A DNA stretch of 20,463 bases, from IMG/VR virus record IMGVR_UViG_3300010232_000025; one strand, 5' to 3'. Below the pieces are notes generated by a model that was not told the origin of the DNA, searched no databases, and was given only the letters and a program-made list of their open reading frames with translations. The translations under genes were made by a program, and so were the position numbers. The stretch is from a virus. Positions within the stretch are counted from its first letter, which is position 1. Each line of letters begins with the position of its first letter. This document shows positions 1-14,628 of this stretch, piece after piece.

Positions 1-79
1 CGGGTGGGGGCGAACGATTAGGTGAGGATTACGGGCGTTCGAGGGGGTCGTTCGACGGGCTGGACGAATGGCGACGGAG

Positions 80-163
80 TGGGCGGGGCGGGATTTGAAC
101 CCGCGGTTCCCTACGGAAAGAGGTCTTAAGCCTCCCGCGTTTTCCGGGCTTTGCTACCCGCCC
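80..163 (-). tRNA. trnL: tRNA-Leu, anticodon UAA (class II, no encoded CCA)
   Basis: Minus strand GGGCGGG-TA-GCAAAGCCCGGAAAACGC-G-GGAGG-CTTAAGA-CCTCT-TTCCGTAGGGAA-CC-GCGGG-TTCAAAT-CCCGC-CCCGCCC-A. Shows a 7-bp acceptor stem, anticodon TAA at 128-126, a long variable arm, a TTCAAAT T-loop and discriminator A. The D-stem is weak (A12.C23 mismatch). Confidence 0.95.
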
Positions 164-182
164 TCGAAAAGGAACGTGTGAC

Positions 183-444
183 TTGTCGGGCGTACCGTCG
201 CCGCGGGGGTTCCGCGGGACGTTACCCGCCCCTCGTTCACGGGTCGGGGCCTTCGAGTCCGGTCCGGGGCGTCGCCGCCTGTTCGCTACTAACCCTCGCG
301 GGCTTTCCACTCGGACCGGTTTAGGGCGCGGTCCCCGTCGCCTGTGGGTGGGGCTGTTCCCTATGCGTGTCGCCCACTCTCGCCCGTGGGAACCATGAGG
401 TCCACAAGCCGGGCCTAAGCGGGTCCGAGGGACGCATGGGACAG
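183..444 (-). ncRNA. Candidate structured non-coding RNA upstream of, and probably co-transcribed with, tRNA-Leu
   Basis: No acidic ORF. Multiple helices: 432-444 pairs with 354-368; hairpins at 373-390, 313-334 (GGACCG/CGGTCC), 291-304 (AGCCC-GCGA-GGGTT, GNRA loop) and 201-217; 228-232 pairs with 266-270. The promoter motif at 468-487 predicts a start near 443. Confidence 0.45.
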
Positions 445-467
445 GCTACCGGTCGGGCGGGTGTGGT

Positions 468-494
468 AAAAAGGTCCGGGACGCTAACCGGTTC
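468..494 (-). promoter_or_regulatory. Viral promoter-family copy (GTTAGCGTCCCGGACCTTTTT)
   Basis: 27-bp near-identical copy (1 mismatch) of 13511-13537, which lies about 25 nt before a leaderless ATG. Same register as the TTAGCCYCCGRTAACTTTWT family. Confidence 0.7.
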
Positions 495-790
495 TACAGG
501 TCGGGGACCTGAACGGGCCGCTGGACCGCCTCGCGGACGACGGTCGGGATATGGGTCACGTCGAACCACTCCTCTCCCTCGCCGCCGACCTCCTCGACGG
601 TCGAGAGGTCCACAGCGGTAAGCGCCTCGCCCCTGTGGGTCGTCTCGTCCTCCGGGAGGGCTGAACTCGGACGGAGACGCATGCGGAACGTTTCGCCCGC
701 CGCTTCGTAGTAGACGGAGAGAGTTGAGATCCCGTCCGCCTCGCCGCGAACCTGTAGGACCGCCGCGGAGTCCTTAGCGGTTGAGGACAT
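494..790 (-). CDS. Hypothetical protein (98 aa)
   Basis: Acidic ORF with halophile-type codon usage; its ATG abuts the TAA of the upstream ORF. Confidence 0.8.
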   Translation of the reverse strand: MSSTAKDSAAVLQVRGEADGISTLSVYYEAAGETFRMRLRPSSALPEDETTHRGEALTAVDLSTVEEVGGEGEEWFDVTHIPTVVREAVQRPVQVPDL

Positions 791-3685: not shown

Positions 3686-3735
3686 TTATAAAGTTACCGG
3701 AGGCTAATAGACAGTAGCCCGAAAGAATAGCCGGG
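3686..3735 (-). promoter_or_regulatory. Terminator-promoter junction; promoter-family copy (20-mer at 3688-3707)
   Basis: Minus strand GGCTATTCTTTCGGGCTACTGTCTA-TTAGCCTCCGGTAACTTTAT. Confidence 0.8.
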
Positions 3736-4179: not shown

Positions 4180-4250
4180 AGCGTGGGTTTGGTATCGGGA
4201 CCTCCTACGTCCCGCCTCGCCTTGTCCAGCCGCGGACGCGACGAGGCTAC
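4180..4250 (-). repeat. Conserved structured leader element, copy 3 (5' UTR, lacks the upstream anti-GGAGG strand)
   Basis: Minus strand GTAGCCTCGTCGCGTCCGCGGCTGGACAAGGCGAGGCGGGACGTAGGAGGTCCCGATACCAAACCCACGCT-ATG. Begins at the start site predicted from the promoter at 4276-4295. Confidence 0.8.
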
Positions 4251-4270: not shown

Positions 4271-4324
4271 GGTATAAAAAGTTATCGGGGGCTAATGGGC
4301 GACAGTCCAGAAAGATAGCCCGGG
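4271..4324 (-). promoter_or_regulatory. Terminator-promoter junction; promoter-family copy (20-mer at 4276-4295)
   Basis: Minus strand CCCGGGCTATCTTTCTGGACTGTCGCCCA-TTAGCCCCCGATAACTTTTT, immediately after a TAA. Confidence 0.8.
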
Positions 4325-11967: not shown

Positions 11968-12040
11968 ACGGATAGGGCGTCTATCCGTTTTGTATGTGAC
12001 TGATATAAAGTTACCGGAGATTAATGGAGAGTAGCCAAAC
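11968..12040 (-). promoter_or_regulatory. Promoter-family copy (20-mer at 12005-12024) with an 8-bp inverted repeat over the predicted start site
   Basis: Minus strand TTAATCTCCGGTAACTTTAT. ACGGATAG-GGCGT-CTATCCGT at 11968-11988 spans the predicted start near 11979. Confidence 0.75.
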
Positions 12041-13180: not shown

Positions 13181-13483
13181 CTAAATCAGCCCCTTTCTCG
13201 CGTAGACCTGTGCGAGGAGGAGGGCGAATACGATACACCCGCCTCCGAGGACCGCGAGGGTCGGATAGAGTCCGAGGACGGACAGCGCCCACAGCGCGAC
13301 GCCCGCGACGACGAGGACGACGCCGCCGAACAGGAACGCCGCGAGGGACAGCCCCGCGAGGGTCCCCGCGCCCACTCCGAGGGAGAACCCGGTTAGCATA
13401 TCGCCGGTCGCGGACTCTCCGTCCGCGGGGATCTCCGCGTCGGGGTTCGCCTTTCGTTCTACCTGTTCGTCGTTCGAGGACAT
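13181..13483 (-). CDS. Small membrane protein (100 aa)
   Basis: Long hydrophobic stretch compatible with 2-3 TM helices; leaderless ATG after the promoter at 13511-13530. Confidence 0.8.
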   Translation of the reverse strand: MSSNDEQVERKANPDAEIPADGESATGDMLTGFSLGVGAGTLAGLSLAAFLFGGVVLVVAGVALWALSVLGLYPTLAVLGGGCIVFALLLAQVYARKGLI

Positions 13484-13510: not shown

Positions 13511-13537
13511 AAAAAGGTCCGGGACGCTAACGGGTTC
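13511..13537 (-). promoter_or_regulatory. Viral promoter-family copy, near-identical to 468-494
   Basis: AAAAAGGTCCGGGACGCTAAC(G/C)GGTTC occurs twice; the predicted start near 13486 matches ATG 13483. Confidence 0.75.
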
Positions 13538-14608: not shown

Positions 14609-14628
14609 GAAAAACCCCCGGAGACTAA
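14609..14628 (-). promoter_or_regulatory. Promoter-family copy
   Basis: Minus strand TTAGTCTCCGGGGGTTTTTC, 25 nt before leaderless ATG 14584. The TAGGGT-ATG context is shared with 3662. Confidence 0.7.

Follow-up and report, generated by a model that had tools for sequence, protein, structure and literature searches.

A probable structured non-coding RNA gene with its own promoter and a facultative tRNA-Leu in uncultured haloarchaeal viruses

What is encoded by some 275 nucleotides (nt) of viral DNA that lie between a promoter and a run of T and contain no credible open reading frame (ORF)? The question is raised by a 20,463-nt stretch of DNA, IMG/VR virus record IMGVR_UViG_3300010232_000025, hereafter called the window. 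The window has a GC content of ~63%, nearly all of its genes lie on the minus strand, and their acidic products include a TFB-like factor, a PAPS-reductase-like protein and a PCNA-like protein; by this profile it belongs to a haloarchaeal tailed virus. Halorubrum tailed virus 29 is the nearest cultured relative but a distant one, and since its match to the PAPS-reductase gene is just 39% identity the virus has no close cultured relative. Read along the minus strand, the stop codon of an ORF of 98 amino acids (aa) at 494-496 is followed by a promoter box (487..468), the ~275-nt segment, TTTT (170..167), CGA and a tRNA gene. An initial annotation had proposed that this segment specifies a structured non-coding RNA with its own promoter, and a conserved promoter, covariation and the lack of any conserved reading frame bear this out. 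We conclude that positions 167-444 of the minus strand are probably an independent gene for a structured non-coding RNA of ~275 nt, shared by three lineages of uncultured haloarchaeal viruses. The RNA matches no described RNA family and its architecture appears to be its own. The features of the locus, in the order of transcription, are as follows.

Positions 494-790, minus strand: upstream ORF of 98 aa, with its stop codon at 494-496.
Positions 468-487, minus strand: archaeal-type viral promoter, TTAGCGTCCCGGACC plus a T-rich TATA-like box (468-472); it has an exact twin at 13511-13530 and is kept in three clades.
Positions 440-444, minus strand: predicted transcription start, ~442 +/- 2, from the promoter-to-leaderless-ATG spacing.
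Positions 354-444, minus strand: P1, an irregular 91-nt 5' hairpin of five stacked helices, from the minimum free energy (MFE) fold, RNAalifold and pair counts.
Positions 320-353, minus strand: linker L1, with the probable 5' strand of helix P2 (CGGGGACC, 331-338), from the MFE fold and covariation between clades.
Positions 259-319, minus strand: P3, a three-way junction with a closing helix (312-319/259-266) and arms P3a (285-310) and P3b (268-279), from conservation and compensation in clade C.
Positions 230-258, minus strand: variable segment D3, with the probable 3' strand of P2 (GGCCCCG, 245-251), from its complementarity to L1.
Positions 188-229, minus strand: P4, a hairpin of CGGGU/GCCCG, an internal loop of AA opposite GUAY, CGUC/GACG and a variable tip, from conservation and compensation.
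Positions 167-187, minus strand: 3' tail with a conserved ACACG and the T-run TTTT (167-170), a probable terminator; the T-run is present in all homologues.
Positions 79-163, minus strand: tRNA-Leu(UAA), a facultative passenger 3 nt past the T-run, from ARAGORN and Rfam (51 bits).

How widely is this segment shared? No match was found by blastn at a distant setting between positions 1-2900 of the window and 50,697 phage records. Because the RNA sequence matched nothing in this phage collection, homologues were sought through the upstream protein. A tblastn search with the 98-aa neighbour gave no match, and protein-guided scans of IMG/VR with the ORFs at 1272-1724 and 2082-2870 gave nothing. 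Relatives of the 98-aa protein led to contigs L002-L007 and L135-L140, which were therefore found independently of the RNA sequence. A DNA pattern drawn from the most conserved block added L008/L011, L009/L010 and L012, and further DNA patterns in IMG/VR returned only the same two contigs again. Together these give nine distinct RNA sequences, the window and eight metagenomic or viral-contig homologues, with homologue lengths of 277-313 nt. They fall into three clades: clade A comprises the window, L002 (99% identical), L003, L006 and L007; clade B comprises L004, L008 (identical to L009 and L012) and L136, a low-coverage contig; and clade C is L139 alone. All homologues belong to an uncultured lineage of haloarchaeal tailed viruses. 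With R1, a covariance model built for the RNA, the sequences of clades A and B score 124-150 bits; that of clade C is recognised with filters off only, at 28.6 bits. In all seven comparisons the nucleotide identity of the RNA exceeds that of the adjacent ORF, for instance 84% versus 72% in L006 and 77% versus 67% in L008.

In the genomes searched, the RNA was not found outside these viruses. A DNA-pattern scan of 185,579 species genomes found no copy, and R1 found no credible copy in the ~307 Halobacteria genomes searched (5 + 151 + 151). A match in genome G201 (28.6 bits with R1) was taken to be a false positive, as it lacks P3 and, judged by eye, lies in ordinary gene-dense surroundings. The viral contig L010, the same 39-kb contig as L009, contains at 499-591 (minus strand) a partial look-alike of P4, CGAGUAAUGUCC...GGACG, which lacks P3 and scores 24.9 bits with R1; it may be the remnant of a duplicate, or a module that has been used again. 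The 98-aa protein family is also present in L001, L005, L135 and L138, all of which lack the RNA. Other small genes occupy the place of the RNA in L001, which carries a relative of the ORF at 494-790. The other three keep gene-free gaps of 425-565 nt at the same place (L005 611-1174, L135 600-1023 and L138 1311-1822). These gaps carry promoter-like T-runs, GGCGCTTTTCACGTCCG is common to L005 and L135, and other, unrelated RNAs may occupy the same slot there.

Where would the transcript begin and end? The promoter 20-mer (487..468) is repeated letter for letter at 13530..13511 and belongs to a family of at least seven copies, others of which were aligned at 1749-1768, 3688-3707, 4276-4295, 12005-12024 and 14609-14628. 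Four copies precede leaderless genes, with 24-27 nt between the end of the box and the ATG. Because of this spacing, transcription of the RNA is predicted to begin at ~442, on the first pairs of the long helix at the base of P1. The initial annotation had read the motif at 468-487 in the same way and had placed the start near 443, a prediction upheld by the exact twin and the spacing. The box lies upstream of the RNA in all three clades at a constant distance from the first helix, and even in L139 the distance from the TATA box to the base of P1 equals that of the other clades. At the other end a T-run closes every homologue, as YCCYUUUUCG in clades A and B and as GGGCUUUUCU in clade C; the clade B sequences have a GC hairpin just 5' of it. 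By analogy with established archaeal termination this is probably an oligo-T terminator and, having four T in the window, likely a leaky one. The sole exact twin of the promoter drives a leaderless gene at 13181-13483 (minus strand), whose 100-aa product contains a long hydrophobic stretch of membrane-like character; this gene and the RNA unit may share a temporal class.

What argues for an RNA structure is the pattern of base changes, above all in P1. The long helix 432-444/354-368 described in the initial annotation is found in the MFE fold as the base of P1, and the further hairpins listed there are present in this fold as well. Among seven sequences, 11 pairs of P1 show double changes and 96% of cells are paired. 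A slid control, in which the 3' partners were moved by 1-3 columns, leaves 0-2 double-change pairs and 31-45% of cells paired. An alignment of eight sequences gives compensatory change at 12 of the 26 P1 pairs, so the covariation among homologues to which the annotation had looked for support (11-12 pairs, against 0-2 when slid) is there. At six paired positions G-U predominates: five of these are G-U in 7/7 sequences and the sixth in 5/7. On the plus strand such positions would read A-C and could not pair, which assigns the structure to the transcript of the minus strand.

P2 is a long-range helix (331-338/245-251) that is found in the MFE fold of six of the eight sequences and would enclose P3. 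D3 differs between clades yet stays complementary to L1: the helix shifts from CGGGG/CCCCG in clade A to CCGGG/CCCGG in clade B, and L006 and L007 carry a paired insertion of GUCC and GGAC. In L006 and L007 the duplex is beaten by 1 of 300 shuffles. P2 is probably real; a local hairpin within D3 is the alternative reading.

The P3 junction is closed by CCGGUCCG/CGGACCGG and is the same in clades A and B except for single bases, namely G307, which is A in most relatives, and one change of the closing helix in L003 and one in L136. Clade C has a closing helix of CCCGGGCG/CGCCCGGG with three compensatory changes, a P3a hairpin one pair shorter on both sides, and no P3b, while the CGAGUGAAAAGCC and GGUUAGUAGCG strands of P3 are unchanged. 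P3a contains an internal loop of GAA opposite AGUA and is capped by a hairpin at 292-303, GCCC-GCGA-GGGU. This is the GNRA-capped hairpin that the initial annotation had placed at 291-304; the hairpin is present, but its loop is not kept as GNRA, being GACGA in clade B and CCGA in clade C. P3b has the form GGCG-GNRA-CGCC, and its loop varies between GCGA, GAGA and GUAA but is always GNRA. As the inner helix of P4 the window has CGUC/GACG, L006 and L007 have UGUC/GACA, and L139 has CGCG/CGCG together with a tip that has grown to two hairpins. The GGGUAAYG and GUAYGCCC strands of P4 are invariant, except for GCCA in place of GCCC in L136.

Two internal loops are frozen while elsewhere the helices drift with compensation and loops and whole arms change or vanish. 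In both, a GUA strand lies opposite an AA strand with flanking pairs constant across the three clades. In P3a this is GUGAAAAG opposite UAGUAGC, an invariant example of the loop E/S-turn pattern of AGUA opposite GAA; AA opposite GUAY in P4 is a related pattern. A GUA strand opposite an AA strand is the core of loop E/S-turn motifs, which serve as protein-docking or tertiary-contact sites, as in loop E of 5S rRNA and the sarcin-ricin loop. By this match of patterns, both invariant loops look like members of the loop E/S-turn class.

Does the RNA belong to a known family? A search of the window, L008, L139 and nine loci against Rfam, at gathering score and at E <= 10, returned only tRNA and matches at chance level (P36, a partial raiA, CcsR1 and msiK), in keeping with the unassigned RNA of the initial annotation. 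The raiA match (RF03072) lies over P3, covers model positions 99-173 and scores 15.4 bits (E 0.08) where the gathering score is 101.3; it is confined to one clade and absent from the copies of clades B and C. The resemblance is that P3, too, has a closing helix, a hairpin and then a purine-rich junction with UAGUA. Membership was rejected, as the score is far under the gathering score and the match needs a helix that conflicts with the conserved GNRA hairpin P3b. To our knowledge, raiA is found in Bacillota and Actinomycetota and not in archaea or viruses. Membership of GOLLD, ROOL or OLE was rejected likewise, there being no covariance-model match beyond this partial one.

The initial annotation had also compared the RNA with GOLLD and ROOL, and as an analogy of kind this stands. 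These are viral or proviral structured RNAs of unassigned role, often beside tRNAs, with conserved junctions and GNRA-capped arms. They differ in being bacterial and roughly 600-800 nt long, whereas the RNA described here is archaeal-viral, measures 275-313 nt, half to a third of their size, matches neither model and has its own architecture. Its context is viral, as theirs is, but an adjacent tRNA is found in 3/9 homologues only. GOLLD and ROOL are described as nanocages by cryo-EM in a preprint (bioRxiv 10.1101/2024.12.08.627333).

Another parallel is with species 1 and 2 of phage T4 (the 'band C/D' RNAs), stable RNAs of the phage tRNA region with no assigned role. Both cases concern a viral, stable-looking non-coding RNA beside a tRNA, with which it probably shares a precursor that is cut by the enzymes of tRNA processing. 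T4, however, infects another domain of life, there is no sequence relation, and the RNA described here is about twice the size, has its own promoter and persists without a tRNA. A search of the literature on structured RNAs of haloviruses yielded nothing bearing on this RNA, and we know of almost nothing published on structured non-coding RNAs of archaeal viruses.

Three further candidates were rejected. An IS200/IS605 omega-RNA or PATE-type transposon RNA, an idea taken from PMC10544981, would not fit an element that has no credible copies in the Halobacteria genomes searched, is syntenic and occurs once per virus contig. A riboswitch or attenuating leader is argued against by the promoter-like box that the next gene has of its own in L003, L006, L007 and L139, and by the absence of any Rfam riboswitch match. 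The intercistronic leaders at 1184-1271, 2871-2954 and 4180-4250 (minus strand) proved unrelated to the RNA. In these leaders a long variable hairpin is followed by a box, GUAGGAGG(N)(U)CCCGAUA(U/C)C, with an ATG ~15-20 nt later, and the box contains a Shine-Dalgarno-like GGAGG.

Is the RNA, then, an appendage of the tRNA-Leu? The initial annotation placed it upstream of this gene. That is correct for the window, where the tRNA starts 3 nt past the T-run, but the link is facultative: tRNA-Leu stands behind the RNA in three of the nine sequences, drawn from two clades. Besides the window these are L002, a 2,732-nt contig that ends inside the tRNA, so that ARAGORN reports none although the first ~55 nt of the same tRNA are present, and L136 of clade B, where the 5' part of a very similar tRNA lies at 2206-2237, 10 nt past the T-run, at the end of the contig. 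No tRNA lies behind the RNA in L003, L004, L006, L007, L008 or L139 (ARAGORN having been run on L003, L004, L006 and L007). In the window and L002 the tRNA forms an extra block between the T-run and the homologous downstream flank, and the flank past it (window 1-78) aligns with relatives that have no tRNA. The tRNA thus appears to be internal to the virus and facultative, and always placed directly behind the RNA. As it is patchy in two clades and missing from close relatives of its carriers, it has presumably been gained or lost repeatedly at this exact junction.

When the sequence ~25-30 nt ahead of the tRNA was inspected by eye, no T-rich TATA-like box was seen, and because of this expression of the tRNA most likely depends on read-through from the RNA promoter. 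The converse dependence was rejected: the RNA is not the leader of a tRNA precursor, because the six relatives without a tRNA retain it. Because the tRNA is facultative and placed after the T-run, we regard the RNA as the independent gene and the tRNA as its passenger. Just downstream of the RNA/tRNA unit (window ~10-60) lie CGAACG boxes, two direct and one inverted, with C-rich spacers. The set, which lies ahead of the next promoter, is kept in L003 (3640-3720), L006 and L007, and as CGAAAACG in L139 (1290-1345). It could serve to bind a protein, as an operator or an origin-like site.

What else could the segment be? A small protein-coding gene, either the 38-aa ORF at 321-437 or an ORF on the plus strand, is extremely improbable. 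Open frames of 38-93 codons do exist on both strands, but every one is basic (net +2 to +17) while the real proteins of this virus are acidic; the annotation's observation that the region holds no acidic ORF is thus confirmed, and none of the frames is conserved. The start codon of the 38-aa ORF, ATG at 437 in the window, is replaced by ACG in L004 and L008 and by GTG in L136, indels of 1-4 nt shift the frames, and substitutions follow base-pairing, not codons. The chance that we are dealing with a circularly permuted or degenerate RNase P RNA is smaller still and close to nil. The RNA has a similar size class to archaeal RNase P RNA (RF00373), adjoins an RNase P substrate and contains a GA-rich invariant strand, GAGUGAAAAGCCC, that faintly recalls CR-I, with GAGUGGAAAGCCCG loosely resembling it. 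The initial annotation raised, without endorsing it, a speculative P4-like pairing, which the window does permit: AAAG-C-CCG (299-306) with CGGCUU (406-411), leaving a one-base bulge. It fails on comparison: AAGCCCG never varies, but the strand meant to pair with it is variously CGGCUU, CGGUUC, CCGUUC, CGGUUU or CUAC, with no covariation, and AAGCCC pairs locally, in the hairpin whose two sides change length together in clade C. The P4 helix of RNase P would need CR-I (GAGGAAAGUCC) and CR-V; the RNA has no CR-V-like element (ACAGAA...GGCUUA), and the CR-I and CR-V of haloarchaeal hosts look quite different. Unpermuted RNase P models (RF00373, type T and bacterial) gave no match at E <= 10 on window 160-450, L008 or L139, which represent the three clades, while as a positive control RF00373 scored 147.6-150.3 bits on Haloferax and Halobacterium genomes. 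The annotation's decision not to call this RNase P was sound. An element acting in cis, whether as a 5' leader or processing platform of tRNA-Leu, a 3' untranslated region of the upstream operon or a read-through leader or attenuator, has rather more in its favour and is nevertheless quite unlikely. Operon transcripts may enter the RNA, since no T-run intervenes between it and the ORF stop (494-496), and the tRNA, which seems to lack its own promoter, lies just past a terminator that is likely leaky. On the other hand, the RNA is kept in homologues that lack the tRNA, its own promoter is conserved in all clades, in L008 and L139 one or two other ORFs intervene between it and the upstream family gene, and the promoter-like box of the next gene lies 150-250 nt past the T-run in L003, L006, L007 and L139. 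A role linked to replication or packaging, as an origin-priming or origin-activating transcript or a pRNA-like packaging RNA, we consider very unlikely. The conserved CGAACG boxes could point to it, and the region stands at the end of a block with PCNA-like, TFB-like and DNA-modification genes. Yet the boxes lie outside the RNA, one-strand G-U pairs with compensatory changes indicate an RNA structure and not a site in duplex DNA, and within the window there is neither an AT-rich unwinding element nor a turn in cumulative GC skew. Packaging RNAs, as far as we know, occur only in phi29-like phages, which also counts against this reading.

These four explanations are less likely than the main rival, which accepts the RNA gene but holds that the RNA functions by itself, as a ribozyme, a ligand-binding RNA or a self-assembling RNA like raiA, ROOL or GOLLD, with the invariant loops making tertiary contacts. 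RNAs with tertiary structure typically combine, as is seen here, several domains with GNRA-capped arms and with junctions and internal loops of highly invariant sequence; the weak raiA match lies over P3; and L1 contains self-complementary stretches in clade B (GACCCGGGUC) and clade C (GGUCCCGCGGGACC). The raiA likeness, however, suffers from the low score and restricted range given above, and its helix clashes with a hairpin whose loop varies yet stays GNRA. One GNRA arm is dispensable in clade C, the loop of the other is not kept as GNRA, and neither a known self-cleaving core nor an Rfam ribozyme match was seen. We rate this rival as unlikely. A bolder proposal, that with this RNA begins a new class of compact RNAs with tertiary structure, specific to archaeal viruses, is doubtful, if somewhat less so. 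Such an RNA would be either a decoy for a host factor, such as a defence nuclease or a protein that binds tRNA or ribosomes and recognises S-turn loops, or an RNA-only machine, that is, a ribozyme or a self-assembling particle.

The explanation that we prefer is an independent RNA gene whose product binds a protein. Transcription would start at ~442 and mostly stop at the T4 run. In tRNA-bearing genomes, read-through past it would give an RNA-tRNA precursor, from which RNase P, cutting at the 5' end of the tRNA, would release both RNAs; the tRNA would be a passenger on the promoter of the RNA and not the reason for its existence. The RNA would then act in trans during infection as a compact folded molecule, the loop-E/S-turn-like loops of P3a and P4 being docking sites for a host or viral protein. 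It might be a scaffold or a decoy, with its variable helices as spacers only. A protein-binding role in trans is preferred because the two S-turn-like loops are frozen while the helices drift, but the mechanism is a guess, to which we give rather less than an even chance.

Several points weigh against the RNA gene or its proposed role. The start, the end and the very existence of the RNA are read from sequence. Its folding energy is marginal: the segment folds somewhat better than its shuffles, as the initial annotation expected (z = -1.96), but 8 of 200 shuffles fold as well, and a wider stretch gives z = -1.42. What lifts the case above chance is the comparison of homologues and not thermodynamics. 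In five of the eight sequences P2 lacks significance (at least 34 of 300 shuffles as good), and in L004 it is borderline (12/300). P3 and outer P4 are invariant in clades A and B, so that the evidence for their pairing comes from the single sequence of clade C and from energy, and the loop E/S-turn assignments are matches of pattern only. Finally, no partner protein has been found. The 98-aa neighbour was considered for this part, with no support either way: some viruses have it but not the RNA, Pfam has no family for it, and AlphaFold predicts a small beta-sheet (pLDDT, the predicted local distance difference test, 80) that matches nothing in the PDB at E <= 0.001.

The family to which the 98-aa protein belongs (A5) has an invariant C-terminal motif, P.VVR....PVQ.P, and a predicted five-stranded sheet with one helix. 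In some viruses it forms the C-terminal domain of larger proteins, of 417 aa in L008 and of 364 to 656 aa in P0011 and P0018. In relatives without the tRNA, a gene downstream of the RNA matches Pfam Acb5 (PF26761), at 5017-5475 in L003 and 5560-6012 in L006, and because of this match anti-defence genes may be present nearby.

Support for the RNA itself is good, and its parallels in kind are the stable but unexplained RNAs found in or around the tRNA clusters of phages. It also shows how a viral tRNA gene can join or leave an existing RNA transcription unit. Being short (275 nt), with a clear promoter and terminator and with covariation from three clades, it is amenable to synthesis and probing, and its two invariant internal loops are obvious targets for mutation or pull-down. 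If it does found a new class, archaeal viruses would possess an equivalent of GOLLD and ROOL, the RNAs of phages that are likewise unexplained. Should a partner or an activity be found, it would offer a way into many similar unexplained viral RNAs.

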